Positions 5,497 through 28,102 of a stretch of DNA of 57,812 nucleotides are shown in pieces; position 1 is the stretch's first letter, and the number at the start of each line of letters is the position of its first letter. The notes under the pieces are model-generated. The model saw nothing but the letters and a program-made list of their open reading frames with translations. It did not search any database and had not been told where the DNA came from. This DNA is from an uncultured virus (IMG/VR IMGVR_UViG_3300028048_003162). Taxonomy: Duplodnaviria > Heunggongvirae > Uroviricota > Caudoviricetes. The translations under genes were made by a program, and so were the position numbers. Where the stretch lies: the IMG/VR virus record IMGVR_UViG_3300028048_003162, one strand, 5' to 3'.

Positions 5497-6483
5497 ATGG
5501 GAGTATCATTTAGTGAGGCAGTAAAAAATGAATTAGTGTCAGAGGAAACACTAAAGGTAATACCTAAAAGATGTTTATGTGGCAGTGAGTTAGAGTTTTC
5601 AGACTCACTAAAGGAATTGAAATGTACAGATAAGAATTGTAAGCAGACAGTAATTGCTAGAGTTTGTACATTTTGTAAAAAATTGGGCATACCTTTAAGT
5701 TATGAGGATGTAAGTTATATTGTAAATAACATTGGAATTGTAACACCTTATCAAATTATGATGCTTGATGAATTAAATAAAGAGAACAGTTCTTTATTGG
5801 GAATGGTCTACAACATTGATGAGGTGCTGCAAGTTATTGAAAATATAAAACAGAATGAATATCTTTTGAACTATGTAGTTGAATTATGTGGCATTGAAGA
5901 TATTGCTAATATAGCAGAGAAAATGTTTTATGGTTTTAAAAGTTTAGATGAGGCATACAACGAAATTGAGATTGGACAGGTAACATTTGTAAATGAACGT
6001 TTAGGAATTAAGAAGCCTGACAGTAGTATTATTTCAGTAAGGATTTATAATGAATTGTTAGACAGTAAGGAAGAGCTTTTGTTTGGAGAGACACAGTTCA
6101 AAATAAAAGAGTATGACTCCCCTAGATTGAATATAGCATTTTGTGATAATACAATACCATTTATAAATAAATCTGAACTTATAGAGGAATGGAATTACAA
6201 GTATGGTTGCATATTTAATCAAGTGACAATCATTGGAGAGAATACAGATATACTTGTGAAAAATGTAGATGGAGCAAGTAGTAAGGTTAGGGCAGCTAGG
6301 ACAATAAATGATGAGTACACAGCTGAATTGATGAATAATACTGGTATGGAGTTAAGAGACATAGGAAAATATGAAGAGGGCAAGCTAAAACCTATTGGTA
6401 GCAAGTTGTTTGTTGAGTCATTAGCAAACATAGAGAGTAGGTTGCAGTATATGATAGATAAGGGATACACAATAAAGAGTTGA
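5497..6483 (+). CDS. NAD-dependent DNA ligase C-terminal-half-like protein (Zn finger, HhH, BRCT)
   Basis: PKRCLCGSEL...LKCTDKNC Zn finger; LGIP/CGIEDI HhH-like; ENTDILVKNVDGASSKVRAAR BRCT-like. Confidence 0.65.
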   Translation: MGVSFSEAVKNELVSEETLKVIPKRCLCGSELEFSDSLKELKCTDKNCKQTVIARVCTFCKKLGIPLSYEDVSYIVNNIGIVTPYQIMMLDELNKENSSLLGMVYNIDEVLQVIENIKQNEYLLNYVVELCGIEDIANIAEKMFYGFKSLDEAYNEIEIGQVTFVNERLGIKKPDSSIISVRIYNELLDSKEELLFGETQFKIKEYDSPRLNIAFCDNTIPFINKSELIEEWNYKYGCIFNQVTIIGENTDILVKNVDGASSKVRAARTINDEYTAELMNNTGMELRDIGKYEEGKLKPIGSKLFVESLANIESRLQYMIDKGYTIKS

Positions 6484-6513: not shown

Positions 6514-6960
6514 GTGTACAATTTAATTGGTAAGTGCTATAAAGATTTAGACATATATGAGTTTAAGGTTGAACATGAAGGAAACATAGAGTATTTAAGT
6601 AGAGACAGGGTAATTGAATTGGCATCAGCAGGAGAAATTGAGGGTGTGCATACAGTTACTGATATAGATGGCAAGATAAAATTGTTAGTGGACAAAGGGT
6701 TAAGTAGTTTAGACACTTGTGTTAATGAAGATAGACATAAAATGAAAATAATAGGCAGGATGGTAAATTCAGACGAGAGATGTATAGGCTATGTGGTAGT
6801 TGGAGACAACAAGAAAGAATACAGACTTAGCATTGGTAAGGTTTGGGAAATGACCATTAATCATAATATAGATGGTGTGAAAGCAGTTATTAAAAATGAT
6901 AGAAAGTATTTATTGAGTATTGACCCAGGGTTTTTAAGTAACCTGCCTAAAATAAAATAA
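6514..6960 (+). CDS. Tandem DUF3892-like domain protein
   Basis: Two ~70-aa repeats (LSRDRVIELASAGEIEGV; LSIGKVWEMTINHNIDGVKAV..RKYLLS..LSNLP). Confidence 0.55.
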   Translation: MYNLIGKCYKDLDIYEFKVEHEGNIEYLSRDRVIELASAGEIEGVHTVTDIDGKIKLLVDKGLSSLDTCVNEDRHKMKIIGRMVNSDERCIGYVVVGDNKKEYRLSIGKVWEMTINHNIDGVKAVIKNDRKYLLSIDPGFLSNLPKIK

Positions 6961-6974
6961 GGTAAGACATCAAT

Positions 6975-7003
6975 TTGACAAATAACTAGTTGTGTGTTAT
7001 AAT
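6975..7003 (+). promoter_or_regulatory. Sigma-A type promoter
   Basis: TTGACA-N17-TATAAT with extended TG. Confidence 0.7.
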
Positions 7004-7060
7004 ATAAGAGTAATAAGGAGATAGTTTGAACAATGATGTACACAGTTGAACGAAAGAATA

Positions 7061-7100
7061 GACCCAATAGACTAGTTAATCTTTAGGCTATTGGGTTTAT
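7061..7100 (+). terminator. Intrinsic terminator-like hairpin
   Basis: GACCCAATAG/CTATTGGGTT inverted repeat followed by T-rich sequence. Confidence 0.55.
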
Positions 7101-7128
7101 TGCTTTATTTGGAACATTGTGGTATAAT
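7100..7128 (+). promoter_or_regulatory. Sigma-A type promoter for infC
   Basis: TTGCTT-N17-TATAAT with TG at -15. Confidence 0.6.
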
Positions 7129-7171
7129 AAAGAAAAAATAAAAAATAAAAATAAAAAGGAGAGCAATTTAA

Positions 7172-7681
7172 TTGAAAACAAAAGACAGACCTGTAGAAAT
7201 TAAGTCATCAGTAGTGAATGTAATCATGGAGGATGGAAAGATCAATCAGATGGTTACAAAAGAGGCACAGAAGTTAGCAGAAGAGCAGGGTTTAGATTTG
7301 ATTCTGCTTAACAATTCAGGGGATGTGCCTGTAGTTAAAATTGGAGATTACAACAAATATATCTATGAGAAAAACAAGAAAGCAAAAGAGAGTAAAAAGA
7401 GACAGAAAGCAAGTTCTCAGACACTGAAAGAGATTCAGATCAGTGACTCAATTGCAGAGCATGACTTGGAAATCAAGGCTAAATCAGTGGACAGGTTATT
7501 ATCAGAAGGACATAAGGTTCAGCTGTCAATCAGGTACAAAGGAAGAGCGATCGCCTTTATTAAAGGTGGTATTGAAAAGCTTGAGCACTTGGAATCAAGA
7601 GTGACAGTGAATCATAAGATAGATAAAGCAGCTAAAATTAGTGGTAATCAGGTTACAATGATGATATCACCCACTAAGTAA
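7172..7681 (+). CDS. infC: Translation initiation factor IF-3
   Basis: EAQKLAEEQGLDL, PVVKIGDYNKYIYE, LKEIQISDSIAEHDL, GHKVQLSIRYKGR; TTG start with AAGGAG RBS. Confidence 0.93.
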   Translation: MKTKDRPVEIKSSVVNVIMEDGKINQMVTKEAQKLAEEQGLDLILLNNSGDVPVVKIGDYNKYIYEKNKKAKESKKRQKASSQTLKEIQISDSIAEHDLEIKAKSVDRLLSEGHKVQLSIRYKGRAIAFIKGGIEKLEHLESRVTVNHKIDKAAKISGNQVTMMISPTK

Positions 7682-7705
7682 GCATGGACATGGAGGTGTT
7701 TAACT

Positions 7706-8350
7706 TTGACACAGAAACAAAAAGACATTTCACTTGTAGTTGGTGTGATAATTGCACTGATTATAATTGGATTGACAGGTAGGTACATAACTAATCATAG
7801 TGGAGGAACAACTGCAGACAATGTAGTTGAGAATACACAGTCTGGGAAAGATGATAGCATTACAATCAATGGAAGAGACAGTGATGCAAGTTCAGTAGAT
7901 CCTAAGATTAAGGCTAAATTGGACACTGATAAAAATATGAGTGCTCAGGGAATTGAACAGCAGAGCATTTCGGAAGAGACAGAGGATGATGCAGATGTAC
8001 AGACAGTTGAAAATGATGTGTACATAGTTAAACAGTCGGGTGATGCATTAGCAAGTTTAGTTGGTACTTGGGCAACTAACAATGGAGACATTGTTAAAAT
8101 TGTTGAGAGTAATGGAACTTGGAGCTACACAGCATACAAAATTGATAGCAACAAGACTTATAGCAATAAGTTGGTTTGTACTAGCAAAAAATTAAAGTTT
8201 AAGACAAACAAGAATAATAAGAAGTACAAGGAATATAGAATTGTAACATTACCTAGATCAGTTGAGAACAAGGTAACTGGGAAGAAATCAACAGTGTTTA
8301 CGATTGAGAGTACTAAAGGAAAAGCAATAATGCTTACTAAAGGTGAATAG
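7706..8350 (+). CDS. Membrane-anchored extracellular protein (possible lipocalin-like beta domain)
   Basis: N-terminal TM helix; LVGTW motif; GGAGGTG RBS with TTG start. Confidence 0.65.
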   Translation: MTQKQKDISLVVGVIIALIIIGLTGRYITNHSGGTTADNVVENTQSGKDDSITINGRDSDASSVDPKIKAKLDTDKNMSAQGIEQQSISEETEDDADVQTVENDVYIVKQSGDALASLVGTWATNNGDIVKIVESNGTWSYTAYKIDSNKTYSNKLVCTSKKLKFKTNKNNKKYKEYRIVTLPRSVENKVTGKKSTVFTIESTKGKAIMLTKGE

Positions 8351-8359
8351 GTACTTTTG

Positions 8360-8401
8360 TATAAGGTGATCAAGCAGTGAGTTTGATTACCTTATATTTT
8401 T
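8360..8401 (+). terminator. Intrinsic terminator
   Basis: TATAAGGTGATCAA/TTGATTACCTTATA stem + T run. Confidence 0.75.
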
Positions 8402-8537
8402 GATCTTTTTGAGATCAGATAGTTTAAGCATTGGGTGGTGCATAATTAAAATTAAGTATTTTGGTATGTCTCAAAGATGAGCACTTACATGATATAATAA
8501 TGAAATTATTATTTTATTTGATTGGAGGATTTTGATT

Positions 8538-9434
8538 ATGCAGTTGGTACTCATAGCAATCATTAAAGGTGGTAGGCAGTATAAACAAATTAGTGGGTTT
8601 AGAATAATTGACAGTGATACACGAGAAGTACAGGATATTGCATATAATAATGTAATTAGTACATTAAGAAATGGAAATGCAACAGTTGATGGAATTGATG
8701 TATCAGGGTCTGAACCTAAGGGCAGCAATGGTAGTTTTGATAGATATGCACAGATTGCTGATGGAGTACCTGTTGGTAAATGCCCTGCAGTGATATTAAA
8801 AGAGTATGCAAATAAGGTTTATGATGTGTCAGACCCTTTTGGTAGAGTGGTTCAGATGACAGAGCAATCAATAATTGATTATGCATCTGTAGAGGGTTTA
8901 GCCAACGGTAAGGTAGTAAATGAGCATATTAGCAGTATAAATGGATCATATAATGCTGATAAGTCATTACTTAGGGCAAAATCAGGAGACAAGCTGAAAC
9001 AGAAAATGCGTATACTTGGAGAGACTAATACAGTACTGAATGATGATAATTACTTAGAAAGTATAAAGTCAGACGAAGAAGCAGTATCAGTTGGCGTAGG
9101 TTGTTTAGGTATATGCAGTGAGGCGTTTAGGGAGTGTCCTAATGTAAAAGAGATACACTTACCTTCAACTTGTGTAAACTTTGATGAAAAAGCCTTTGCA
9201 GGTTTGAAATACTTGGAGAAGATAAATATACCTGATGGTACAGTGGAGATTTCTAGAATGTGTTTTTTGAATTGTAGGGCACTTAAGGAAATTGAGTTAC
9301 CTAACTCTATAAGGAAAGTTGGAGACAGTGCTTTTAGAGGAACAGCACTCAAGAAAGTAAGTGTAGGACCTGTAAGGTTTAGTCAGGGTAGGACTTGCTT
9401 CCCTGCATCAGCTAGGTTACAAATAAGACATTAG
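8538..9434 (+). CDS. Shared N-terminal module + BspA-type leucine-rich repeats (LRR_5)
   Basis: AFRECPNVKEIHLP, AFAGLKYLEKINIP, CFLNCRALKEIELPNSIRKVGDSAF; N-terminus paralogous to 9452 and 12194. Confidence 0.85.
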   Translation: MQLVLIAIIKGGRQYKQISGFRIIDSDTREVQDIAYNNVISTLRNGNATVDGIDVSGSEPKGSNGSFDRYAQIADGVPVGKCPAVILKEYANKVYDVSDPFGRVVQMTEQSIIDYASVEGLANGKVVNEHISSINGSYNADKSLLRAKSGDKLKQKMRILGETNTVLNDDNYLESIKSDEEAVSVGVGCLGICSEAFRECPNVKEIHLPSTCVNFDEKAFAGLKYLEKINIPDGTVEISRMCFLNCRALKEIELPNSIRKVGDSAFRGTALKKVSVGPVRFSQGRTCFPASARLQIRH

Positions 9435-9451
9435 GAGGAGGAAAGATAGAC

Positions 9452-12163
9452 ATGAAGATTTTTATTATTGCACAGATAGTAAATGGAAATGACATAGTAG
9501 GTTATAGGATGTTGGACGTAGATGATAAGAATAAGGTACTTGATATTCCTTTGAATAACCTAGTGCAAACACTTGGATCTCCTCAGGGAGAGGGACTTAT
9601 TAAAAATGCTAAACTTGTGAATGGAAAAGTGACAGGCACTAATGGTAGTTTATCACGTTATGCAAAAGTGGATGCAAACACTGGTAGATTAGTTGATGCA
9701 AGTCCTTTAGTTGTAATCAACAAGATTGAAGATGTAGGATACACAGTGGCTGACTTCAATGGCAGGGTAGTAAAAATGAAAAACTCTGATGTAGTTGACT
9801 ATGCAAAGAAAAATGGCATTGCTAATGGTAAGGTAGTCATTCAGGATGGAGTGGAGTTTATAAGTAGTATTTCAGATACATATGAGGTAAAAAAGATTAG
9901 TCCTAGCAAAGTTGGTAAGACAAGGACAATGGGGATGCCTATACATATAAGTAATAATAACAGCAGTATTGCTAAACACACCAGAGAAGATGTAGACACG
10001 GAGATTCAATACACAGACGTATTTGCAGCGATGACTGCAGAGCAGAGAAACACACTTAAGCAGTACTATTCATGGTATACAGTAGATGAATTTGAGAAGC
10101 TTGCACATAGTGTTAGACTTTCATTAGCACCTGGTAAGGCAGAGAAATTGGCTGCACTACGTGGAGTTGATGATTGGGTGTTTGCAGGAATAAATGATAG
10201 TTACCTTGAAAAGAGGTTTGATGCAAAGTGTGAATTAGGTCATAACTTAAGATATGAGTATTTTGCAATACCTGATGATAGTGCAACAGATAAGGATAGA
10301 CAAAGACATAGGGGTGAAAATTGGAAAGAAAGACTTAGTTCTTTTGATGCATTAAGAGAAAATGGTGCAATAGTGTTTGGTGAGAAATGCTCTGCTGATT
10401 TCTTCAATATCTCTACAGATGATATGAAAAAGCTTGTTAAAACACGTAAGAACATGACAGAAGAGATTGAACTTACATCTAATGTGATAACTAATCATTT
10501 GGAAAAAGAATACATGGAAAAATGTAAGTTATTATATAGCATTATTCAGGAACTTGGGTCAGCTAGTGAAGTGGTAAGAATCTTTGGAGATAAGGTGGGA
10601 TATACACTTCTAATGTTTATTAAGACAAATATACCTTTTGTAAAGAGTCTTGTGCTTTTAGCAGGGGAGAAGGCAAGAGAGAACAAGAAAGAATTATTCA
10701 AAGCATTGTATAAAAAGAATGCAGACCTGATTGATATAATATACAGTGGCGGTTTATCTAATGGGGCACGTCAGGAGAGTGCAGTGCTTGATCATATTGT
10801 AACATATTCTATTGAGGGTAAATATCAGTATGATCCTTTACACGACGAGGAAAGAACAAGAAGAGACATAGGTAAATATAATGAAGAGACACGTAATGAA
10901 AGGAGAACAGAGAATGCATTCTTCTTTAGTAGATCATTGATTAGGGATGATGAGTCATTAGAGGAAATTCAGGGATACTTAGCAACATTGGATATGATGT
11001 ACACTATATTTGGTGCAAGTGATCATTATATTAGAAGTAGGGCAGAGGATGTTGAATGTAAGTATCCTGCTAGTAATACTAGCAGAAGAGGAAGTAGGTA
11101 CTTACCTTTGCAATATTTCTTAAATGATATGTATACATGGGTAATCTATAATACAGACAGGACAGATGTGAATAGTCTTACAGATTATTCAGCAGTCATT
11201 AGTAGTTTATCTGTTACAAATAGGTATTCACGCAGACCTGACTATAAAAACTTAATACCTGAAAGTAGAATGGGTAGAGACTATAATACTGTATTGGAAC
11301 TTAAGGAAGTAGTTGAGACAGCACTAGGTAATAGCAGTGACATTAACACACTTGTAGTAAATACAGTAGGAAAATATATAGATGCAATTTCAGCAGATGA
11401 AAGGGCAAAGAGAGAAGAAAGACTTAACAAGATAAGTTATTGTGTAGCACTGCTAAATGATGATACAGGCAATAGAGTATTATTTGAGGCAGACAAGGAT
11501 ACAAAGTTAGCATTGCAGAATAATCAGAGTCATATGGTGAATACAATTGGACATGAAGAAATGAATGTGCAAGACTTTAAGAGTGTAGAATTCATCAGTA
11601 CTTTTGAATATAATGCATATAAAATAAGAATGTCTGGTTTAATGAATGAGCCTGTTGTAAAAGAGAGTAGGACAACAGCTAAACGGGCTGATGCATATTT
11701 AAGTGAGAATGGTACAGATGGGGATAAAGCAGATGCAGGTACTAAAGATAAGGTTCAGCTTGTAAAAGAGTTATTAGATCAATACAAAGGAGATATGGAC
11801 TATGGTTTAATGACTGCACAGAACATTGCAAGTAGAGGAATTGCATATGATAAATTATCTGACAAGCAGAGATGGAGAATAGATAAAACATATGAAATAT
11901 TAACTGATACAAGTTCGAATGGGCAGAGTACACAGGTAAATGAAGAGAGTAGCAATAAGAATTTGTTGAAAGATCATCATGATGTTTCAGAGAAGATTGA
12001 AAAATTGTTAGAGATCAGGGTTAATGGAGATATGGATGCACTGGCTAAAATCAATACAGCATCAAGAATTGTTTATAATATCATTCAAACTGTTGAAAGA
12101 ACAGGTGAATATTCAGATAAACAGTTGAAACATATTGAAAAAGCATATGAGGTAATTAAATAA
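9452..12163 (+). CDS. Large protein: shared N-terminal module, putative Zn site, C-terminal SDKQ helical repeats
   Basis: GTNGSLSRY/GIANGKVV module; CELGH...GEKC; LSDKQRWRIDKTYEIL and YSDKQLKHIEKAYEVI. Confidence 0.75.
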   Translation: MKIFIIAQIVNGNDIVGYRMLDVDDKNKVLDIPLNNLVQTLGSPQGEGLIKNAKLVNGKVTGTNGSLSRYAKVDANTGRLVDASPLVVINKIEDVGYTVADFNGRVVKMKNSDVVDYAKKNGIANGKVVIQDGVEFISSISDTYEVKKISPSKVGKTRTMGMPIHISNNNSSIAKHTREDVDTEIQYTDVFAAMTAEQRNTLKQYYSWYTVDEFEKLAHSVRLSLAPGKAEKLAALRGVDDWVFAGINDSYLEKRFDAKCELGHNLRYEYFAIPDDSATDKDRQRHRGENWKERLSSFDALRENGAIVFGEKCSADFFNISTDDMKKLVKTRKNMTEEIELTSNVITNHLEKEYMEKCKLLYSIIQELGSASEVVRIFGDKVGYTLLMFIKTNIPFVKSLVLLAGEKARENKKELFKALYKKNADLIDIIYSGGLSNGARQESAVLDHIVTYSIEGKYQYDPLHDEERTRRDIGKYNEETRNERRTENAFFFSRSLIRDDESLEEIQGYLATLDMMYTIFGASDHYIRSRAEDVECKYPASNTSRRGSRYLPLQYFLNDMYTWVIYNTDRTDVNSLTDYSAVISSLSVTNRYSRRPDYKNLIPESRMGRDYNTVLELKEVVETALGNSSDINTLVVNTVGKYIDAISADERAKREERLNKISYCVALLNDDTGNRVLFEADKDTKLALQNNQSHMVNTIGHEEMNVQDFKSVEFISTFEYNAYKIRMSGLMNEPVVKESRTTAKRADAYLSENGTDGDKADAGTKDKVQLVKELLDQYKGDMDYGLMTAQNIASRGIAYDKLSDKQRWRIDKTYEILTDTSSNGQSTQVNEESSNKNLLKDHHDVSEKIEKLLEIRVNGDMDALAKINTASRIVYNIIQTVERTGEYSDKQLKHIEKAYEVIK

Positions 12164-12193
12164 CATATATAAAGGAAAGGAGGTGCATCTAAA

Positions 12194-14482
12194 TTGAAAA
12201 TACATCTTATTGGAGTGCATTATGGAAATAATAGCAAGGCAGACATTACAGGATTTAGACTTTTAGATTCCGATAGTGGACAAGTAATGGATCAGACATA
12301 TCAAGCAGTTTATAGTGTATTAACACAGGGAAAAGTGGAAATACAAGGCATTAAATTAGACAGACATAAAGGTTTAGTTGGAAGCAATGGAGCCTTTAGT
12401 AGATATCCTTCATTTGTAGTTGGAAAGACAGCAGGACAGTCTATAATAATTATAGGCAGTTATGATAATGTTGGTTACAAGATTGCAAACTGTAATGGAC
12501 AGATGGTTGATATTAAGTCAGAGGATTTAATTAGAAAGCTACTGGGTAAAGAGTGTAAGATCGCTAATGGTAAGGTAGTAGACAAGGATGGTTTACAGTT
12601 TATTTCTGCAATAAGTGGCAGTTATGACAATTTGGGTACACCTAAAATCAAGAGACAACCAGTTAAACAGAAAAGTGCACAGGCCGAAAGAAAACCTGTG
12701 CAGGTTGAAAAGAAGCAGGTACAACATCAAAAGAAACAGGTGCAGGCTGAAAAAGAGGATAAGTCAGTTAATAATAAAATAGACATTAGTGATAATGAAA
12801 AGAGACATGCAGCTATGACTACAATACTTAGAAATCACAGGTTTGTATCAGAGTTAAGTGATGCTGAATCCCTGATGAAAACTGTAGATCCTAATACAGG
12901 AATGACAGTAGAAGAAAAAATGAATTACGCACAGGTTGCATTGAGGACATTGAAACCTTTTTATTACTCATTGTATTCAGGCTTCAATAAAAAAGAATCA
13001 GACAGGAAGCATGGAGTGAAAACACTTGGTGTAACACTAAATACATTGTATTTCAATTCAGAGTTTGTACTCAAATTACCTTTGGAAGAGCTGGTGTTTA
13101 CAATAATTCATGAGTTATCTCATGTGGCTATGAGACATAGATCACGTGAGGGTAAGAGAGATCATAAGAAGTTTAATTATGCATGTGACTATTACATCAA
13201 TAGAGAAATTGCTTTAGACTTTAATTTAGAGCCTGGGGTACCTGTAAAAGCAATTAGTGCAGTGGAAAGAGAGAAGATGACATCTGAACAAATAATGGGT
13301 GAACTTGGAAATAAGAATAGATACACAATAAAGTTACCTACTTGGGTTTTGTACAATCCTGACGTTGACATAGAAAAGGATACACCTGAAAGTATATATG
13401 ATGAGATTGAGAATCCTCCAGAGGATCCTAATCAAAGCAATGGGAACAGTGATAATAGTAAGGATAGCAATGATGACAATGATGATTCATCAGACAACAG
13501 CTCGAATAATGATTCAGACAATGGAGACAATGAGTCATCAGAGGGTGGAGATGCTGAGCAGGATGGAAATGCTGAGTCATCAGAGGATGAAGATGCTGAG
13601 CAGGATAGCAGTGATAGCAGCACTGGTTCAGGAGATAAAGACAGTGAGGATGGAGACAGCAATGATAAAGAGGGTGGCTCTGGTGATTTAGGTGATGAGG
13701 ATAACGGAGATAAAGTAACTTTCAGAGGGACAACACAGAGTGCTCCTGAAGACGACATGGTTGATGATGAAGAGACAGCAGGTATGTCAGATGAGACCAT
13801 AGAGCAGAAAGAGAAAGGCGTACTTAAGGCAGCAATACAAAGACATAAATTATCTGGTCATAACTTTGGTGGAGAGAGTGGGGATTGGATCGAACGTTAT
13901 GTAGAAAAGTCATTAGCACCTAAAGTAAACTGGGTAGCTCTGGTAAGAAACTATTTAACAGTGTCTCAACAAAAGACAATGTCTTATTCATCACCTGACA
14001 GGAGATTCTTGTCACGTAATAAGATATTTCCTGGTCCTAGGAAAATAGAACCTGATACATTAGGAGATGTTAAGTTCTGCATTGATACAAGTGGTTCTAT
14101 TTCAGATACAGATTTAGGTGTGGTATTTAATCAAATGCAGCAACTACTTAGAAAGTTTAATGCTAAGGCAGAGGTAATTTACTGGGATACACAGATAAGG
14201 TCAATTCAACCTTTTGAAAATATAAGGGAACTTGTAAAAACTAAACCTGTTGGAGGTGGAGGCACTGATGCAAATTGTATCTTCAGGTATTTTGAAGAAG
14301 ATAAGCAGTATAGATTAAGAATGAGACCTCAACCTACCTTAATTGTCATATTTACTGATGGTTATATACCTCAGGTTGATATGAAGCATAAGAAATATAG
14401 AAATACAATATGGGTTGTAAATGGAAACAACTATGAAAGGTTTGATGCACCTTTTGGAAAGAAAGCAAAGCTTAAACCATAG
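12194..14482 (+). CDS. Shared N-terminal module + DUF2201-like HExxH metallopeptidase + acidic linker + vWA domain
   Basis: IHELSHVAMRH, NYACDYYIN; IDTSGSI, GGGTD, IFTDG (MIDAS). Confidence 0.88.
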   Translation: MKIHLIGVHYGNNSKADITGFRLLDSDSGQVMDQTYQAVYSVLTQGKVEIQGIKLDRHKGLVGSNGAFSRYPSFVVGKTAGQSIIIIGSYDNVGYKIANCNGQMVDIKSEDLIRKLLGKECKIANGKVVDKDGLQFISAISGSYDNLGTPKIKRQPVKQKSAQAERKPVQVEKKQVQHQKKQVQAEKEDKSVNNKIDISDNEKRHAAMTTILRNHRFVSELSDAESLMKTVDPNTGMTVEEKMNYAQVALRTLKPFYYSLYSGFNKKESDRKHGVKTLGVTLNTLYFNSEFVLKLPLEELVFTIIHELSHVAMRHRSREGKRDHKKFNYACDYYINREIALDFNLEPGVPVKAISAVEREKMTSEQIMGELGNKNRYTIKLPTWVLYNPDVDIEKDTPESIYDEIENPPEDPNQSNGNSDNSKDSNDDNDDSSDNSSNNDSDNGDNESSEGGDAEQDGNAESSEDEDAEQDSSDSSTGSGDKDSEDGDSNDKEGGSGDLGDEDNGDKVTFRGTTQSAPEDDMVDDEETAGMSDETIEQKEKGVLKAAIQRHKLSGHNFGGESGDWIERYVEKSLAPKVNWVALVRNYLTVSQQKTMSYSSPDRRFLSRNKIFPGPRKIEPDTLGDVKFCIDTSGSISDTDLGVVFNQMQQLLRKFNAKAEVIYWDTQIRSIQPFENIRELVKTKPVGGGGTDANCIFRYFEEDKQYRLRMRPQPTLIVIFTDGYIPQVDMKHKKYRNTIWVVNGNNYERFDAPFGKKAKLKP

Positions 14483-14541
14483 CATGTATAACATATTATA
14501 ATAATTTTTATTATAAAATTTTTGATTGGAGGTAGTAACAG

Positions 14542-15723
14542 ATGGGTAACGACGAACTTGAATTACAAGCCGAGACCATGAATATGATGGCAATAAACAT
14601 TAAACAGTTCACTGATGAAATCAGGATGGACATGGAAGATGGAAACTATGACCCTATTATTGGTTTAGGTAAGTCAGGTATTGGAAAGACAGTGTCTATT
14701 GCAGAATTAGCACAGGAACTTGGAATTGGCTATAAGGAAATCAGATTAGTTGCAATGCAGGAGCAGGACTTACTTGGTGTTCCTGAGGTATATGATCATA
14801 GAACTTCATATGCAGCTAACACACTATTACCTGATGCTAGCAGAGATGGAGAAGTTGGACTTCTGGTGTTTGATGAAATTACATCCTGTTCACAGACATT
14901 AAGAGCAGCAGCTTATCAGTTGTTAGATAGTCAGAGGTCAGTAGGAAATTATCACTTGCCTGAAAAGTGGAAAGTAATTGCACTTGGAAATGGTTTAGGT
15001 GATGGGGGTGTGTTTACTGGCATGGAGTCAGCATTTCTATCACGTGCAACTTGTTTTAGGGTTGACGTTAACTTTAACGTTTGGAAAAATTGGGCAACAG
15101 CTCATGATGTGAATAAGACAGTAGTTGCTTTCTTGGAAAACAATAAGGAATTGATTCACAAGATGAATCCTGACGACATTGCAACAATATTCCCTTGTCC
15201 TAGAAGTTGGACAGCATTGAGTAAAAAGTTAAATGCAAGAGAGAAAAGAGCAAGCAATGGGATTCTAAGTCCTGAGCAGGTTGAAATTTATGCAGCTGGG
15301 GCAATTGGTAGCGATGTTGCATCAAGTTTTGCTGCTTTCTACGCTTATAACAGGGATGTACTTTCTGTAGATGATATTCTGGCAGGTAGAGTAAAAGCTA
15401 AAGACATGCAGGGAATTGAACAGCAGGCTATGTATATTACAATCAGAGAGGTTGTAAGTGAATGCAAGAAAATTCTTGAGCAGGGCAATACAGGTTTAGG
15501 TGAGTTTACAGATGATGCAATTAAGACAACAATCAATATCATCAGATGGATTGGTGAGGCATGCAACGTAAGACTCGACTATGCAACAGTGGCATTGAAT
15601 GATATGATGCAGGGCATTCCTCAATTTAGAGACTTGGTATTAGTAAATGAGGACTTTAGTTTAGACTGTCCTGAATTTACAGCACTCATGGATAAATTGA
15701 ATTTATCATTTACAGCAAGATAA
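14542..15723 (+). CDS. MoxR-type AAA+ ATPase (DUF2201/vWA partner)
   Basis: GKSGIGKT Walker A, LVFDEI Walker B, DLLGVP, ALGN, LSR, PCPRSW. Confidence 0.9.
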   Translation: MGNDELELQAETMNMMAINIKQFTDEIRMDMEDGNYDPIIGLGKSGIGKTVSIAELAQELGIGYKEIRLVAMQEQDLLGVPEVYDHRTSYAANTLLPDASRDGEVGLLVFDEITSCSQTLRAAAYQLLDSQRSVGNYHLPEKWKVIALGNGLGDGGVFTGMESAFLSRATCFRVDVNFNVWKNWATAHDVNKTVVAFLENNKELIHKMNPDDIATIFPCPRSWTALSKKLNAREKRASNGILSPEQVEIYAAGAIGSDVASSFAAFYAYNRDVLSVDDILAGRVKAKDMQGIEQQAMYITIREVVSECKKILEQGNTGLGEFTDDAIKTTINIIRWIGEACNVRLDYATVALNDMMQGIPQFRDLVLVNEDFSLDCPEFTALMDKLNLSFTAR

Positions 15724-15771
15724 TCATACAGTGGGAAATAGAAATAAAGTATTAAAATAGGAGGAAGCAAC

Positions 15772-16770
15772 ATGGCAGTAAAGAGATTTGGTGCAGTGGT
15801 AGGTATTGAAGAGAATAAAGAAAATAAGGTATACAGAGTTGTAATTGCACAGTACAATCAAAATGCTGATGGACAGACAGATTGGCAGTTCAGTTGTAGG
15901 AAAATGACTGAATCAGAATTATTTGGTACATTGACAAATGGAGCACAGTACATAAATGTTTCATTGGGTGGCTCTGGTAAAATTGAGTGGAAGTCAGGTG
16001 CAGCTAGTAGGTTTAACAGCAATAAAAGGCATAGACCTTATGTAATTATTTCACAGATCTTAAATAATGATGATAAGATCATAGGTTTTAAGGTTGCAGA
16101 CTTTGATGGAAATGTAAAAAACATTAAAGCAAAAGAGATGATTGCATATGGTTACAGAATGACAAAGTTTGGAGACACACCTGTTCAAAATGCAATGTTT
16201 GTTCCATCTGATGAAAAGACAGGTAAGAAAGCTTTCTACAAGGCTTATCCAGGTAGTAAACTTTTTAAGGAAAAACTGGTCGTTAATAAAAATAAATACA
16301 ACAAGCAGGCTAAGAAACCTGACATCAATAAAAATAAAGAGTCACTTAGTAAATTGGAGCAGATATACACTCCTGAACAAATTAAGCAGTTGAAAGAGGG
16401 TAAAGCACAGGGAGTTGACATTAAGATCTATGCAAATCCTGCTTTATCAGCAGAGCAAATGAAATGGCTTAAGTTTGGTTTAACTAAAGGTGCTGATGTA
16501 AGATGTATTGCATTTCCTGAATTTAAGTTAGAAGCAATGCAGTATTATGTATGCGAGTTAATTGATGGAATGGACATTAAGAAGTATTTAAACACAGAAT
16601 ACAATGCTGAACAGATTGCAGAATTGAGTTTAGCAGTTGAGGAGGGATTGGACATTAGTAATATGGCTAATCCTAAGAATTCAGCTTCTGACATGGCTGA
16701 GATAAGAGAGAGATTAGAGTATAACATTTGGAATGATATGTTAGTCACTAAGGATGGAAGTTGGAAGTAG
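15772..16770 (+). CDS. Divergent shared N-terminal module + ~26-aa helical repeats
   Basis: YVIISQILNNDDKIIGFKVADFDGNV; repeats of type EQI..L..G...GVDI..YANP..SAEQM. Confidence 0.75.
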   Translation: MAVKRFGAVVGIEENKENKVYRVVIAQYNQNADGQTDWQFSCRKMTESELFGTLTNGAQYINVSLGGSGKIEWKSGAASRFNSNKRHRPYVIISQILNNDDKIIGFKVADFDGNVKNIKAKEMIAYGYRMTKFGDTPVQNAMFVPSDEKTGKKAFYKAYPGSKLFKEKLVVNKNKYNKQAKKPDINKNKESLSKLEQIYTPEQIKQLKEGKAQGVDIKIYANPALSAEQMKWLKFGLTKGADVRCIAFPEFKLEAMQYYVCELIDGMDIKKYLNTEYNAEQIAELSLAVEEGLDISNMANPKNSASDMAEIRERLEYNIWNDMLVTKDGSWK

Positions 16771-18323: not shown

Positions 18324-18776
18324 ATGGGACAGAAAAAGCTTAACGTTCAGAATAAGAAAGCATATCATGACTATTTTGTAGAGGACAAATTAGAGTGTGG
18401 TATTGCACTTAAGGGAAATGAGGTAAAGAGCATAGTAAGTGGTAAGGCATCCATTAAAGAGGCATGGGTAGACATTGTGAATGGTGAACTTGTGTTGAAA
18501 CAGATGCATGTCACACCTTGGGATACATCAAATGGTTTCGATGTGGACGAGTTGAGAGCAAGAAAGCTGCTTGCTCATAAGAAAGAGATCAGAGAATTTG
18601 ATCAGAAAGTACAGAGAGATGGATACACACTCATTCCTTTAAGTGTGTACAGCAGTCATGGAAAGATCAAAGTCAGTGTTGGTTTGTGTAAGGGCAAGCA
18701 CGATTATGACAAGAGAAATTCTCTGAAAGATAAGCAGGTCAAAAGAGACATTGCAAGAGAATTGAAAAACAGATAG
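18324..18776 (+). CDS. smpB: SsrA-binding protein SmpB
   Basis: NKKAYHDYF, ECGIALKGNEVKS, RKLLAHKKEI, GYTLIPLSVY, KGKHDYDKR. Confidence 0.97.
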   Translation: MGQKKLNVQNKKAYHDYFVEDKLECGIALKGNEVKSIVSGKASIKEAWVDIVNGELVLKQMHVTPWDTSNGFDVDELRARKLLAHKKEIREFDQKVQRDGYTLIPLSVYSSHGKIKVSVGLCKGKHDYDKRNSLKDKQVKRDIARELKNR

Positions 18777-19310: not shown

Positions 19311-20144
19311 ATGAAAGAACTTCAGAAATTGACTGATATGCTCGGGCTAGAAATAATAGTACACTCTGTTGTGTACATATGTATTGCATTTGTACTTGTC
19401 AAACTTGTCAATAAGGCATTTGATAAAGATAAGGTTGCAAATATGATACATATGAAATTCATTAAAAATGCACTTGTGACAATTATATGGGTCATTGCAG
19501 GTTGTACAGTAGCAGGGCAATTTAGCGGAGTCAGTAAGTTAGCAAGTACAATACTTGCTGGTTCAGGTATATTAGCAGCTATAATTGGTTTAGCTGCACA
19601 GGAATCCTTTTCAAATATATTCAGTGGGCTGTTTATTTCTATATTCAAACCATTCAATATTGGTGATAGAATCAGTATTGTTGGGGATAGTACAGCAGGG
19701 TTTGTTGAGGATATAACTCTTAGACATACAATAATTAGGACTTACACTAATGTGAGTGTGATTATACCTAATTCAATTATTGCATCTTCTAAGATTGAGA
19801 ATAGTACATATACTAAAGGGTGTTCATACCCGATAGAAGTGGATATTGCATATGAGGATAAAGAAAAGCGTCATAGAGCAATGGAGATCATGGAAGAAGT
19901 TGTGATCAATCATCCTAAGTTTTATGATATGCGGAGTGATGAGGCTAAGGTACTTGGTGTTAAACCTGCTCAAGCATTATGTACTGAGCTTGGAGATAGT
20001 GGAATACATATGAAAATTCTTATGTGGACAGAGGAGTTTAGTGATAATGCAGAGGCTTGTAGTGAATGTCGTATGAAAATACTTGATAGACTTGAGGAAG
20101 AAGGAATAGAGATTCCATATAACAAGATTGAACTTATTAAGTAG
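19311..20144 (+). CDS. mscS: MscS-family mechanosensitive channel
   Basis: Three TM segments; GLAAQESFSNIFSG, KPFNIGDRI, VEDITLRHT, IIPNS, GIEIPY. Confidence 0.92.
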   Translation: MKELQKLTDMLGLEIIVHSVVYICIAFVLVKLVNKAFDKDKVANMIHMKFIKNALVTIIWVIAGCTVAGQFSGVSKLASTILAGSGILAAIIGLAAQESFSNIFSGLFISIFKPFNIGDRISIVGDSTAGFVEDITLRHTIIRTYTNVSVIIPNSIIASSKIENSTYTKGCSYPIEVDIAYEDKEKRHRAMEIMEEVVINHPKFYDMRSDEAKVLGVKPAQALCTELGDSGIHMKILMWTEEFSDNAEACSECRMKILDRLEEEGIEIPYNKIELIK

Positions 20145-20197
20145 CAGTTAGATATAATAAGGGTATTTATTATTAAATTAAAAAGGATGGTATAAAA

Positions 20198-22558
20198 ATG
20201 GCGAATAACAATGGAAGACATATTGGTGGACTTAGTTTTATGGGAGCAAGCAAGGGTGCAAACGATGCATTACTTGAGGCAGCTAACCTTTGCATTGATA
20301 ATTGCTGTGAAGGGCTTGAGCCAGTTGAATTCTTCATTGCTTTATTAGATAAGACAAAGTTAGGTAAAAAGATCTTGAAAGATTCAGGAAAGACAAAGGA
20401 TGATTTCCTGTTTGCATTTGAAGGTTTAGCAGCAGCTGGTGAGTACGGATATATGGACTATGGCAATGATGGCAGTAAGGTAGATCCACAGAGATTACTG
20501 ACACCTACAATTATGAGTTTCATTGCTCCATTAGTACTTCAGTCTCAAATGTCTGGTCAAGGCAAGGGTTTTACTTGTGATGATGCAATGGATGGTTTCT
20601 TTGAGACAGATGAAGAAACAGGTAAGGTTGAGGAAATCGATGAAGGCATCGAAAAACTGCTTGACATGGTTGGTTACAGCTATGAAAAAGTGGCTGCAAT
20701 GGTAAATAAGGAGTTCACCATTCCTGCTGAATTAAAACCATATGTTACATATCTGAATACATCAACTAAAGTGACAGATGGCACCTTTACAAATATGGGT
20801 GACATTGTAAAACAGATGATTGAGATCCTTGGAAGAAAGAGAAAGAGTAATCCTTGTTTAGTAGGATACCCTGGAGTTGGTAAGACAACAGGTGTTTATG
20901 CATATACTCAGTATGTTGTAGACAATAAAATTGATCAGCATATCTGTGCTTTGAATATGGGTACCCTTGTAGCAAATACAAAGTACAGGGGAGAATTTGA
21001 AGAGCGCATGCAGAAAATTATCAAGTGGGCTTCAAATAGTAACATTGTACTGTTTATGGACGAGATTCATACATTAACATCATGCAATTCAGGCAGTAAT
21101 TCAGCATCTGCATCTGATATGATTAAAGGAGCATTAGCAGATGGGGAGATCAAGGTAATTGGTGCAACTACACCAGTTGAGTTTCATAAGAGCATTGAGA
21201 AAGATACAGCTCTTAAGAGAAGATTTCAGAGGGTAGAGTTTAAGGAGCCTTCAGTAGAGGAGGCAATCACTATTGTTAAGGCAGCAGTACCTGAATATGC
21301 AGGATTTCATCATGTAGGAATTAGCAATGGCATTGCTGAGCAGGTGGTTAAGCTTTCAGTTAAGTATATTAAGTCAGAGTATTTACCTGATAAAGCATTG
21401 ACAATCTTGGATCAGGCAGCTAGTCATGCTAAGCAGGATAAAAGTAAGTATGCAGTAACTGAAGATGATGTGCTTTATGTAATCAGCAAGAATACAGGGG
21501 TTGCAGTTGAGAAATTAAACAGTGACCAGAGTAAGAGACTGATTAGACTTGAGGGAATTTTGAAAAAGAACATTATTGGTCAGGACACAGCAGTTGAAGT
21601 TGTGAGCAAGGCAGTAAGAAGAGGAAAGGTTGGCATTAGAGAGAATGCTAAACCGATCGCTTCATTTATGTTTGTTGGACCTACAGGAGTAGGTAAGACA
21701 GAGATCTGTAAGGTTTTAAGTAATGAACTTGGTTTAGGACGGAATAGCTTTATCAAGATTGATATGTCAGAGTATTCAACAGAGACATCAGTGACAAAGT
21801 TGATTGGTTCTGATCCTGGTTACGTAGGATATGAAAGTGGTGGCATCTTAACAGAGAAAGTTAAGCAGAATCCTTACAGTATTGTGCTTCTTGATGAAAT
21901 TGAGAAAGCGCATCCTAAGGTGTTTAGCATGTTGTTACAGTTGTTAGACGAGGGAAAAATGACAGATAATACAGGTGTAGAGGTTGACTTTACAAACTGT
22001 ATTGTGGTTATGACATCAAATGCTGGTTATGGAGCATCTGGTTGCAAGCCTTTAGGGTTTGGGGCAGCATCTGAAGAAAAAGATCCTGCAAGAGAAGCAG
22101 AGGACAGAGCACGTGAGGCATTAAAACTGACATTTGCTCCTGAGTTCCTTAACAGAATCGACAACATTGTTGTGTTTAACAGCTTAACAAAAGAGAATTG
22201 CAAGAGCATTAGTAAATTGTTACTGGACAAGCTGGCAAAGAGAATGTCAGAGGATAAAAATATGGTTCTGACATTCGATAATTCAGTAGCGACAGCAGTA
22301 AATGAAGCTGGATACAGTGAGAAATATGGTGCTCGTAATATTAAGAGAGCAATTCAGGACATTGTTGAAGATGGAATTACAGATGCAATTCTTGATGGTA
22401 CCTTGTATGATGGATGCATTGCATCAATTAAATACAATAAGACAAGTAAGAAAATCAAGGTTACAGATAATACACCTGAAACAGTAAAAGAGACTGGAAC
22501 AGCATCAGGAAATAAAGGTGTAAGCAGTGAAGATATTTTAGTACCTATTCTTCAGTAA
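20198..22558 (+). CDS. Clp/Hsp100 ATPase with two AAA+ domains, ClpP-docking LGF loop, no middle domain
   Basis: GYPGVGKT/LFMDEIH; GPTGVGKTE/LLDEIEKAHP; YLPDKA; PLGFG; PEFLNRID; YGARNIKR. Confidence 0.92.
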   Translation: MANNNGRHIGGLSFMGASKGANDALLEAANLCIDNCCEGLEPVEFFIALLDKTKLGKKILKDSGKTKDDFLFAFEGLAAAGEYGYMDYGNDGSKVDPQRLLTPTIMSFIAPLVLQSQMSGQGKGFTCDDAMDGFFETDEETGKVEEIDEGIEKLLDMVGYSYEKVAAMVNKEFTIPAELKPYVTYLNTSTKVTDGTFTNMGDIVKQMIEILGRKRKSNPCLVGYPGVGKTTGVYAYTQYVVDNKIDQHICALNMGTLVANTKYRGEFEERMQKIIKWASNSNIVLFMDEIHTLTSCNSGSNSASASDMIKGALADGEIKVIGATTPVEFHKSIEKDTALKRRFQRVEFKEPSVEEAITIVKAAVPEYAGFHHVGISNGIAEQVVKLSVKYIKSEYLPDKALTILDQAASHAKQDKSKYAVTEDDVLYVISKNTGVAVEKLNSDQSKRLIRLEGILKKNIIGQDTAVEVVSKAVRRGKVGIRENAKPIASFMFVGPTGVGKTEICKVLSNELGLGRNSFIKIDMSEYSTETSVTKLIGSDPGYVGYESGGILTEKVKQNPYSIVLLDEIEKAHPKVFSMLLQLLDEGKMTDNTGVEVDFTNCIVVMTSNAGYGASGCKPLGFGAASEEKDPAREAEDRAREALKLTFAPEFLNRIDNIVVFNSLTKENCKSISKLLLDKLAKRMSEDKNMVLTFDNSVATAVNEAGYSEKYGARNIKRAIQDIVEDGITDAILDGTLYDGCIASIKYNKTSKKIKVTDNTPETVKETGTASGNKGVSSEDILVPILQ

Positions 22559-22600
22559 AACAGACAGGGCAGATATAGAGGATTGGCACTAGTAAAGAGG

Positions 22601-22642
22601 ATTGGCTATGTAGGTGTAACTGACTTACATAGCCAATAAAAA
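22601..22642. terminator. Hairpin, possible terminator (U-tract on the minus strand)
   Basis: ATTGGCTATGTA/TACATAGCCAAT stem followed by AAAAA. Confidence 0.55.
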
Positions 22643-22680
22643 TTAGTACATAGGAATTAAGAAATGGAGGACATGGTAAA

Positions 22681-23181
22681 TTGGCAAAGATTTTAGTTTG
22701 TGGCTCATACAAAATTGTTGGGATACCTGCAGAGGTAGAGAGATGGCTTGAGGAATATACAAAGCAAGGTCATGAGTTTATTGTTGGAGGCAGTAGTGCT
22801 TTAGATAATGCATTGCATCGAACATTATCTGGAGTAGGGGCAGCTGATAAGACAACAGTGTATTGTATGGGATATGCAAGGTATAATAAGTTTAACTTCA
22901 AGGTAAGGGAGTTTGATACAGTATATGATGCAGAAAAGAAACAGGCAATAATTACAGAGCATGGTAATTCAGAGACATTACCATATGTAATTGATGATGT
23001 TAACATTGAGGCTGATGTACAGAACAATAGAGAGTGGTATGAATACTTGAACAATAAGATGATTAACGATTGTGATGCAGCTATCGTCCTGTATGATGGA
23101 GAGAGCAAGACACTTAAAAACATGATGCAGAAGATTAACATTAAGAATAAGCCTTGTTATACTTTTACTTTACAGGTGTAA
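22681..23181 (+). CDS. SLOG/YspA-like Rossmannoid protein
   Basis: ILVCGS, FIVGG..ALD, MINDCDAAIVLYDGESK...KNKP. Confidence 0.55.
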   Translation: MAKILVCGSYKIVGIPAEVERWLEEYTKQGHEFIVGGSSALDNALHRTLSGVGAADKTTVYCMGYARYNKFNFKVREFDTVYDAEKKQAIITEHGNSETLPYVIDDVNIEADVQNNREWYEYLNNKMINDCDAAIVLYDGESKTLKNMMQKINIKNKPCYTFTLQV

Positions 23182-23184
23182 GAA

Positions 23185-24078
23185 ATGAGAATTGGCAATG
23201 GAGTTGTAGGAGCTGCACAGCTTTATGAGTCTATGCAGTTGCTAAAGACAGAGTTTGACAATATAATATTAGTAAACCCATTGGAACAGAGCGAGATAGG
23301 CGTTACTGAATATGGTTTACAGGATTTGAATAGGTGTTGCACTGAAACATGTCCTTTGGCAAATGATAAAGTTGGTTGCATTTGCAAAAGTTGTTTATCA
23401 GCAAAGGAGAACAGATGTAGATACATTTATGATAAAACTAATGCATATCTTGTAATTGCTAAACCCATTAAAATGAGGTACAAGGAATATGCACTGGTGA
23501 TGATTATGAGACTTAATCCTGCATTTCAATTTGGTGGTAATACAGAGAGTGAAGCGATTGAGAGCATCACTAAACTAAGCAGTAGCTTGGTACTTGATCC
23601 TCTGACAAAGATTTTCAACAGGCAATACCTTATGGAAAATGTACAATACATGCTAGAGTTTTGTCTAAAACAGAATAAACCAATGTGTTTAGCATGTATT
23701 GACATTGATAACTTTAAGAGGTTTAATGATACATATGGGCATGAGTTTGGAGACAAAGTATTAAAGAGTGTTGCAGACAACATGGTTAAATGTACAACTA
23801 GTTTAGAGGATGCATACAACATCAGAATTGGTGGTGATGAGTTTGTCATTGTTGGTGTGAATGTTGACAAACAAAGGTTTAAGGCAGTCATGAACAAATT
23901 GTGCATTACAGTTGATAATACTAAACTTCCATATGGTAAAGAGATGGTAAGCATTAAGATAAGTGTAGGAGTCAGTGAGTTATTATCCGATAGACTTTCA
24001 AGTTATAAAGAGCTTTATAATAAAGCAGATGGGCAGTTGTATAAGGCTAAAGAGGCAGGTAAGGGTTGTGTAAGATAG
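23185..24078 (+). CDS. Diguanylate cyclase (GGDEF) with Cys-rich N-terminal region
   Basis: DPLTKIFNR, DIDNFKRFNDTYGHEFGD, RIGGDEF, ADGQLYKAKEAGK. Confidence 0.93.
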   Translation: MRIGNGVVGAAQLYESMQLLKTEFDNIILVNPLEQSEIGVTEYGLQDLNRCCTETCPLANDKVGCICKSCLSAKENRCRYIYDKTNAYLVIAKPIKMRYKEYALVMIMRLNPAFQFGGNTESEAIESITKLSSSLVLDPLTKIFNRQYLMENVQYMLEFCLKQNKPMCLACIDIDNFKRFNDTYGHEFGDKVLKSVADNMVKCTTSLEDAYNIRIGGDEFVIVGVNVDKQRFKAVMNKLCITVDNTKLPYGKEMVSIKISVGVSELLSDRLSSYKELYNKADGQLYKAKEAGKGCVR

Positions 24079-24079
24079 C

Positions 24080-24685: not shown

Positions 24686-24749
24686 ACAACAAGATAGTAA
24701 GTAGAGCAGTGTAAAAGTAAAAGTCAAACCATAGGAAGAGGGAAATGGC

Positions 24750-25553: not shown

Positions 25554-25557
25554 GGAA

Positions 25558-26493: not shown

Positions 26494-26570
26494 AAATAAT
26501 GTTGAGAGAGATAAGTGATAGACATTAAGAAATGTAAGGAGCATATCTAATCAACATAATGTTAAGGTTT

Positions 26571-26643: not shown

Positions 26644-26711
26644 TTCCGGGGAGGGATAAACCGTTAAGACAACCTGCCTGGTATGGAACAAAGTGTTCCA
26701 TTTAAAATTTA

Positions 26712-28040: not shown

Positions 28041-28102
28041 CTGGGCACCATTCAGAGGAATGGCTGTCCTGATTTCCCAATTTTCACATTAAACTCAATC
28101 TT

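Follow-up and report, generated by a model that had tools for sequence, protein, structure and literature searches.

A shared N-terminal module in one gene run

The DNA analysed here, referred to as the window, is a stretch of 57,812 nucleotides from an uncultured virus of the Caudoviricetes (IMG/VR record IMGVR_UViG_3300028048_003162). Between positions 6,514 and 16,770 it carries a run of genes in which proteins with very different C-termini share one N-terminal module of about 145 amino acids (aa), and in which one of these proteins, combining a HExxH peptidase with a von Willebrand factor A (vWA) domain, is encoded beside a MoxR-like ATPase. We suggest below that the module may be a docking domain. 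The genes of this run and their module copies, with open reading frames (ORFs) named by their first position, are as follows.

6514..6960, + strand: 6514-type protein of 148 aa, stand-alone, with two DUF3892-like units; just upstream of the IF3 gene
8532..9434, + strand: LRR-type protein of 300 aa, N-terminal module (match to a profile hidden Markov model, HMM, at aa 3-142) then BspA-type leucine-rich repeats (LRR; LRR_5 E 9e-20 at aa 194-281)
8538..8957, + strand: module copy 1, aa 3-142 of ORF 8532
9452..12163, + strand: 9452-type protein of 903 aa, module then a mostly helical region of ~750 aa
9452..9889, + strand: module copy 2, aa 1-146 of ORF 9452, the copy used for modelling
12194..14482, + strand: protein of 762 aa with module, linker, DUF2201_N zincin peptidase, acidic low-complexity insert and DUF2201 vWA domain
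12197..12631, + strand: module copy 3, aa 2-146 of ORF 12194
14542..15723, + strand: AAA_5 (MoxR-like) ATPase of 393 aa; Walker A at 14668-14691, Walker B at 14860-14877
15772..16770, + strand: 15772-type protein of 332 aa, diverged module then five helical repeats of 26 aa
15898..16152, + strand: core of the diverged module, aa 43-127 of ORF 15772
16369..16758, + strand: repeats with a 26-aa period, aa 200-329 of ORF 15772 (autocorrelation z 8.0 at offset 26, z 5.0 at offset 52)

The original prediction, made from the sequence letters, held that the LRR-type protein, ORF 9452 and ORF 12194 begin with the same module, and all five of the proposed motifs are present in them. Pairwise BLASTP of the first 160 aa gave 36% identity both for 9452 against 12194 (E 1e-21) and for 8532 against 9452 (E 4e-22). 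The LRR gene had been placed at 8538; its longest ORF begins with TTG at 8532, and the first module residue is encoded by the ATG at 8538. The diverged copy proposed for ORF 15772 was likewise recovered, by BLASTP (E 1e-5), by an HMM of three sequences (E 1.2e-5) and by an HMM of 150 sequences (E 6.2e-8), and 15772 orthologues in three other loci matched the 150-sequence HMM at E 3e-12 to 1.6e-7. Significant profile similarity, which had been suggested as a check, therefore unites the N-termini of ORFs 8532, 9452, 12194 and 15772; an HMM search of the six-frame ORFs of the window found no additional copies. The C-termini also differ as had been described: ORF 8532 carries BspA-type repeats (LRR_5, PF13306, 71.3 bits against a cut-off of 27.7), ORF 12194 the DUF2201 peptidase and vWA domains, and ORF 15772 the 26-aa repeats. 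The C-terminal region of ORF 9452, which matches no Pfam family, has two SDKQ repeats, at aa 803 and 888, and the 9452-type protein a conserved C260-x3-H264...C313 motif.

The module is a large family of N-terminal domains

A profile of eight modules was searched against 1.84 billion sequences, with matches given as cluster representatives at 50% identity; at E<=0.001 it recovered 1078 representatives, of which 569 stay within E<=1e-10. The module is strictly N-terminal, its match beginning at residues 1-19 in 150 of 150 proteins among the matches listed, and at about 25 of its columns, R, N-G, R and N-G-K among them, conservation reaches 80% or more across all architectures. It is mildly basic, with a median net charge of +2 and a median isoelectric point (pI) of 8.8 (n=150). 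The 144 proteins longer than 200 aa among the matches listed include 51 of the 9452 type, 32 with LRRs and 20 with DUF2201, and one listed protein (P0001) joins LRR and 9452-type parts; clustering of the listed module proteins adds a group of 24 members (630-704 aa), a group of three and 14 singletons. Pfam scanning of 29 listed module proteins found WG_beta_rep in three and DUF285 in one, and no Pfam match in the four members of the 24-member group that were scanned.

No model for the module exists in Pfam, PHROG or NCBIfam, and the only name on any member, all of which come from metagenome assemblies, is the JGI label ‘WD40 repeat protein’ on one of them. Sequence searches of solved structures returned nothing meaningful for the module, nor for the 6514 family, 12194 or 14542, and tblastn with the module found zero copies in GenBank phage records. 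In prokaryote species genomes, a back-translated GIANGKVV pattern picked out 91 loci, none of which has the module by HMM; the pattern is estimated to cover about one sixth of modules, and this is weak evidence of absence. In our data the module was seen only in huge-phage contigs from metagenomes.

Predicted fold and a remote likeness to DUF3892

An AlphaFold2 (AF2) model of the 9452 module, made from an eight-sequence alignment, has a predicted local distance difference test score of 93.2 and consists of two beta-beta-beta-alpha-beta-beta units, with strands at residues 3-11, 14-22 and 28-33 and a helix at 34-42, and then strands at 86-92, 96-100 and 106-110 and a helix at 111-121. Fold searches with this model gave no enzyme-like match and no clear structural match. 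An hhalign comparison of the two units is in register but weak (E 0.0028, probability 11%), and the tandem nature of the module is mainly a prediction of the AF2 model. The evidence thus far supports a genuine N-terminal, non-catalytic-looking domain joined to very different C-termini.

The original prediction had called this domain DUF3892-like. The source portrays DUF3892, in the part that treats the family, as a meander of three strands plus a helix, like that of double-stranded RNA-binding domains and of ribosome hibernation factors, and predicts that it senses RNAs or ribosomes (10.1101/2025.01.14.632903). Set against that description, the module units share the strand-strand-strand-helix order. 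The Pfam DUF3892 model (PF13031) matched none of eight modules at E<=10; sub-threshold matches occur at unit 2 of 3 of 12 module proteins (E 0.046-0.14, 13.1-14.6 bits against the cut-off of 22.3) and in 3 of 8 small proteins (E 0.007-0.023). Because its matches stay under the Pfam cut-off, we regard the module as remotely DUF3892-like and not as a member of that family. Further differences are that the module always combines two diverged units in tandem, each of them with two additional strands, and that it stands always at the N-terminus of long phage proteins, whereas the DUF3892 contexts described in the source are bacterial defence-type operons.

The label applies more directly to ORF 6514, which passes the DUF3892 cut-off (E 3.6e-5, 24.6 bits against 22.3) and two of whose four orthologues match the family at E<=1. 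That ORF 6514 is a stand-alone tandem version of the module holds at the level of families, although there is no pairwise similarity between them (BLASTP E 0.36): three 6514 orthologues matched the 150-sequence module HMM at E 2.2e-6, 2.6e-4 and 5.3e-4, the window copy only at 0.053, and hhalign of the 6514 family against the module gave a probability of 71% (E 3.7e-5), pairing unit 1 of 6514 with unit 2 of the module. IF3 is among the next two genes after the 6514-type gene in all ten loci.

These observations bear on the main rival to a docking role, which we consider possible, if doubtful. Here the module would be a ligand-binding targeting domain, and each bearer would bind the same host or phage molecule alone, most plausibly RNA or the ribosome; needing no contact between modules or between module and MoxR ATPase, the bearers would work side by side on a single cellular target such as the translation apparatus. 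The strand-strand-strand-helix order shared with a predicted RNA or ribosome sensor fits this (10.1101/2025.01.14.632903), as does the recurrence of sub-threshold DUF3892 matches in module and small proteins, but for the module that relation stays under threshold (0 of 8 at E<=10) and the RNA or ribosome role of DUF3892 is itself just predicted. The stand-alone tandem protein lies by IF3 in 10 of 10 loci, with SmpB, tmRNA and ten tRNAs nearby, yet the IF3 synteny is confined to related phages. The mildly basic character of the module is in line with such a ligand but is not strong, and the existence of dispersed module genes and of proteins with a single unit would suit a general-purpose binding domain.

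The peptidase-vWA protein and its ATPase

The catalytic and metal-binding motifs of ORF 12194, and the insert that lies between them, are located as follows.

13109..13123, + strand: HExxH motif, HELSH, aa 306-310; H306, E307 and H310 invariant in 19 family members
13400..13720, + strand: low-complexity insert rich in D/E/S/N/G, aa 403-509 (~107 aa), between peptidase and vWA domain
14084..14098, + strand: metal ion-dependent adhesion site (MIDAS) motif DxSxS, DTSGS, aa 631-635

ORF 12194 matches DUF2201_N (PF13203; E 8e-30, 104.8 bits) and the vWA-like DUF2201 domain (PF09967; E 1.6e-13, 51.3 bits), and its residues 237-759 match PHROG 1314 (E 3.9e-73). Across 19 aligned members the layout is constant, with the peptidase N-terminal and the vWA domain C-terminal (aa 628-760), and D631, T632, S633, G634, S635, T691 and D722 of the vWA domain are invariant. 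The family alignment spans 1179 columns, far wider than its 762-aa first sequence, and the length of the insert therefore appears to vary between members. A complex prediction for the full-length 12194 family with the 9452 module scored 0.00; run without controls, it is evidence neither way.

The MoxR-like ATPase that had been placed in the same gene run is borne out by ORF 14542, which matches PHROG 1297 ‘ATPase’ (E 3.3e-60) and has intact Walker A (GKSGIGKT) and Walker B (LLVFDE) motifs. Its AAA_5 match is barely over the cut-off (22.9 against 22 bits), and AAA_3 stays under its own (16.7 against 27). NCBIfam and PADLOC searches with the cluster proteins found only a generic LRR match and a weak match to DolB (E 0.0058).

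GenBank has related DUF2201 proteins in 568 phage records, among them those of jumbo phages and of phages assigned to Schitoviridae. The matches begin at about aa 207-285 of ORF 12194, run to about 760 and never reach the module, the GenBank proteins being about 390-460 aa long. An ATPase gene lies near the DUF2201 gene in both GenBank regions inspected (2 of 2), and in phage 0305phi8-36 a MoxR pair is listed among the non-structural genes in the relevant part of its description (PMC2147016). None of the papers found on DUF2201 deals with its function, as judged by titles and the beginnings of abstracts. RefSeq copies of many phage genomes, like PHROG 1314, label the DUF2201 gene ‘HNH endonuclease’, at odds with its Pfam domains. 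A second, short DUF2201 gene (449 aa, positions 22362-23210) without a module is found in the phage genome (G003) behind one of the syntenic loci described below, L004; by BLASTP, no neighbour within 10 kb of it matches the window ATPase.

A conserved core of three genes

A metagenome scan for the DUF2201 family gave 80 further loci; 85 loci were annotated with custom HMMs and 84 DUF2201 genes tabulated, from which we kept those whose 5' end was complete and which were followed by 4 kb or more of sequence, dropping 43 of the 84. DUF2201 proteins with an N-terminal extension are called long-form and those without one short-form, and proteins were clustered at 70% identity. In every one of the 23 clusters an ATPase gene is found no more than 6 kb from DUF2201. 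With the same 6-kb limit, the 15772-type gene accompanies DUF2201 in 35 of 36 long-form loci (17 of 18 clusters) and in none of the five short-form loci (0 of 5 clusters), an association that amounts to one event because the short and the long forms are each a single clade. As strong evidence, the contrast of 17/18 with 0/5 (Fisher p 1.8e-4) was dropped, since the tree shows a single split. The extension is a strong match to the module in most long-form clusters.

Three IMG/VR loci (L001, L004 and L005) are syntenic with the window, sharing the order HNH/ParB, ligase-like, 6514-type, IF3, variable genes, module-DUF2201, ATPase, 15772-type and SmpB, and the same triad of module-DUF2201, ATPase and 15772-type genes recurs in G002, a distant, complete phage genome of 264.6 kb. 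The conserved core is thus the module joined to the DUF2201 HExxH peptidase and vWA/MIDAS domain, the AAA_5 ATPase and the 15772-type protein. Within the last of these the five repeats, which follow roughly the pattern x-x-E-Q-M/I...G-x-D-I/V...P, are the best-conserved part (50-67% identity across 55 of the 57 matches listed). The 15772-type protein matches no Pfam, PHROG, NCBIfam or PADLOC family, and ESM Atlas searches with it and with the 9452 C-terminus reached scores of 0.75-0.80 to unnamed viral clusters, giving no lead. The predicted linkage of the module to MoxR and vWA genes is accordingly sustained for the core, with the ATPase in 23/23 clusters and the 15772-type gene in 17/18 long-form clusters, but only loosely for the LRR and 9452-type pair.

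Accessory module proteins and their history

The genes of the LRR and 9452 types are accessory, and their position links them only loosely to the MoxR genes. In the window they are separate, with a gap of 17 nt. Elsewhere they are fused: a single ORF of 1180 aa (L121:997-4539, + strand) has the order module-LRR-module-9452, which is also found in P0001 (1156 aa) and, split, in L124 (from position 5296 onward). These fused ORFs imply that the LRR and 9452 proteins are functionally tied to each other.

In a module tree of 67 rows, protein type needs 10 changes (mean of shuffled labels 31.8; 0 of 200 shuffles as low). The window 9452 module, for instance, is 61-63% identical to its orthologue in L001, against 36-38% to its own neighbours. 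The modules track the C-terminal type and not the genome, and are therefore old paralogues, neither locally homogenised nor co-evolving in pairs.

Such a history would fit the view that the shared N-terminus is left over from repeated duplication and domain shuffling as a paralogue family expanded fast, its proteins acting independently with no common partner. Huge phages have many paralogous families, and local expansions do occur, as in L167-L171, where four or five module genes follow one another. We nevertheless find this account improbable: the module is N-terminal in 150/150 among the matches listed, about 25 columns are kept at 80% or more across all architectures, and four protein types of distant phages have kept the module, which argues for one conserved module function.

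Genomic setting of the cluster

Every long ORF of the window lies on the + strand, G+C content is ~35% and GC skew is strongly positive throughout. Translation-related genes of the window are as follows.

7172-7681: IF3 gene
18324-18776: SmpB gene
26570-26644 and 50111-52774: tRNA genes, ten in the window
27674-28041: tmRNA, with tag ADEKLAMVA

The window also encodes an HNH/ParB protein, a RuvC-like protein and an NlpC/P60 protein of 1002 aa that matches tail PHROGs. Its relatives lie on viral contigs 88-268 kb long, of which one is complete and has terminal repeats; a locus with 93% identity to the window over the matched stretch (L120) lies on a contig of 464,735 bp, and ORF 15772 has orthologues on contigs of up to 600 kb. 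Given this gene content (IF3, SmpB, tmRNA, tRNAs and others) and the large contigs of its relatives, the window is a non-structural region of a huge phage; megablast with the region found no match among GenBank phages.

Host-like accessory genes occupy two stretches, 19311-26367 and 44244-46401, and comprise a MscS channel, a ClpB-like double AAA protein, a GGDEF cyclase, HAD_SAK_2 and R2K ATP-grasp proteins of the RNA-repair type, Sir2 and a YkuD L,D-transpeptidase. A protein of 328 aa (5497-6483) corresponds to only the C-terminal half of an NAD-dependent DNA ligase (LigA positions 385-524; PHROG 3869 positions 381-640), with no adenylation domain detected in PHROG and NCBIfam scans, and its gene is kept upstream of the 6514-type gene in the syntenic loci.

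This setting bears on whether the module instead incorporates or anchors variable proteins in the virion, as receptor-binding or ejected cargo, with the MoxR-like ATPase and vWA protein as assembly chaperones. Phage fibres and spikes usually combine a constant N-terminus with a variable C-terminus, and LRR_5, WG_beta_rep and DUF285 are binding-type repeats. Moreover, the terms MoxR and von Willebrand occur in a paper that deals, by its title and the beginning of its abstract, with proteins in the virion of an archaeal virus whose tails develop outside the cell. We nonetheless judge a virion role to be unlikely: the cluster lies among non-structural genes (RuvC-like, HNH/ParB, ligase-like, IF3, SmpB, ClpB-like), as does the MoxR pair of 0305phi8-36 in the section of its description that lists it (PMC2147016), none of the module proteins matches structural PHROG families, and a peptidase-vWA protein with its own module would be odd virion cargo. 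The targeting of cargo to a virion or secretion apparatus, offered as an option in the original prediction, found nothing in its favour here.

A putative docking domain

The reading we favour, from architecture and synteny only and with a probability of roughly 45%, is that the module is a docking or adaptor domain bringing all of its bearers to one common site. That site would most likely be the module bearers themselves or the assembly of ATPase and vWA-peptidase. In this lineage the vWA-peptidase has gained the module, which it shares with the third conserved protein, of the 15772 type, and with accessory bearers that have unrelated C-termini (BspA-type LRR, WG repeats, DUF285, 9452-type helical and others). 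These repeat-bearing and other C-termini may supply target specificity or serve as clients, which the ATPase-driven vWA-peptidase would remodel or cleave, the whole process taking place inside the infected cell. We infer the docking, its partner and every later step; the domain family, its N-terminal position and predicted fold, the gene order, the fusions and the intact catalytic motifs are as reported above. Of the earlier idea that the module is an address tag for a MoxR machine, the N-terminal domain on both the core and adjacent genes remains, although the modules group by protein type.

Several observations weigh against a docking domain tied to this machine. An external common ligand would fit the pattern equally well. 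The association of the long form with the 15772-type gene offers just one independent pair (sign test p = 1), the short forms being one clade of the DUF2201 tree with 99% support; one long-form locus (L185) is without a 15772-type gene and has only a 179-aa ATPase fragment, and in three long-form clusters the extension is only weakly module-like (best E 6.7e-7, 1.7e-3 and 7.6e-3, members of the last reaching 0.4). Accessory genes are often absent from the vicinity of the core: of 19 clusters, 6 have a 9452-type gene and 7 an LRR gene within 6 kb, and in one of those seven the LRR gene is just an ORF of 109-111 aa without a module. In G002 the triad lies near 172 kb and the adjacent LRR-type and 9452-type genes near 53 kb, about 115 kb away, and in the 85 annotated loci the 24-member module group (630-704 aa) is never near DUF2201. 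The locus label needs 58 changes on the 67-row module tree, against 10 for protein type. Finally, single module-fold units occur in other dispersed proteins of 108-513 aa (L015-L023, in records G001-G004). One such single-unit protein has a weak match, under the cut-off, to a treble-clef zinc-finger family (DUF4379, 21.9 against 24.5 bits).

Comparison with known systems

The window genes belong to the same two families, PHROG 1297 and PHROG 1314, as the phage ATPase and DUF2201 pair, whose GenBank records, unlike the window, are without the N-terminal module. The pair of DUF2201 peptidase-vWA protein and ATPase is common in phages, and the addition of the module is special to this lineage. 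MoxR-vWA pairs are widespread in phages, and this lineage offers a way into the question of their role there. In the literature on DUF3892, DUF2201, vWA-MoxR systems with effector-associated domains (EADs), and phage MoxR with von Willebrand, the parts available do not describe this module or architecture, though the source data of Kaur et al. (eLife 2020) may list related ones.

A more distant parallel is offered by Rea1/Midasin, in which an AAA_5-type motor is combined with a MIDAS/vWA domain, and whose substrates Ytm1 and Rsa4 have an N-terminal ubiquitin-like (UBL) handle followed by a repeat domain. The likeness is one of analogy only: there is no sequence or fold match, and motor and MIDAS are separate proteins here. 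By this analogy the vWA MIDAS would hold on to an acidic residue conserved in the module, with force supplied by the AAA_5 ring, and handle proteins, including LRR or WG-repeat adaptors on host targets, may be extracted, remodelled or cleaved. We regard such pulling on a handle as very improbable. To judge from the DUF3892-like fold and from the genes for IF3, SmpB and tmRNA that constantly lie nearby, such a machine might act on the host ribosome or its factors; if true, this would be a new kind of phage takeover device for translation.

The closest described parallel to the favoured docking role is found in the MoxR-vWA ternary conflict systems of Kaur et al. 2020. In the sections of that paper that treat them, the third component is VMAP, an inactive STAND, FtsH or a beta-propeller fused to vWA, and EADs are small domains without enzymatic features, with one copy on a core component and others on variable, often adjacent, proteins and elsewhere in the genome, the copies from adjacent genes being closer to each other (PMC7159879). 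As in the systems described there, an adjacent MoxR ATPase and vWA protein are accompanied by a conserved third protein (PMC7159879). In the manner of EADs, the module is found on the vWA-peptidase core and on LRR, 9452-type and 15772-type proteins, with dispersed copies in G002 and G003. The differences are nonetheless substantial. The present cluster is phage-encoded, whereas the systems treated in those sections are from multicellular bacteria (PMC7159879); its ATPase is of the AAA_5 type and no clear AAA_3 MoxR; and models for STAND, FtsH and propellers gave zero matches among the cluster proteins. Variable effectors lie C-terminal of vWA in the described systems, and here the peptidase lies N-terminal of it; EADs are mostly described there as helical, and the module is a beta-rich tandem of 145 aa (PMC7159879). 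Nor are adjacent copies closest to each other here, because the modules group by protein type and not by genome (10 changes for the type label against 58 for the locus, 67 rows).

Thus, the best available comparison is that the cluster may work like an EAD-coupled MoxR-vWA system without being a member of the described ones. Since the vWA-peptidase has a domain in common with a fixed third partner and with changing repeat proteins, the cluster names its own candidate partners and clients. Defining the module, which has more than 1000 clusters at 50% identity and no Pfam, PHROG or NCBIfam model, would improve the annotation of huge phages, and would carry the ‘shared adaptor domain’ logic of bacterial conflict systems over to the phage side.

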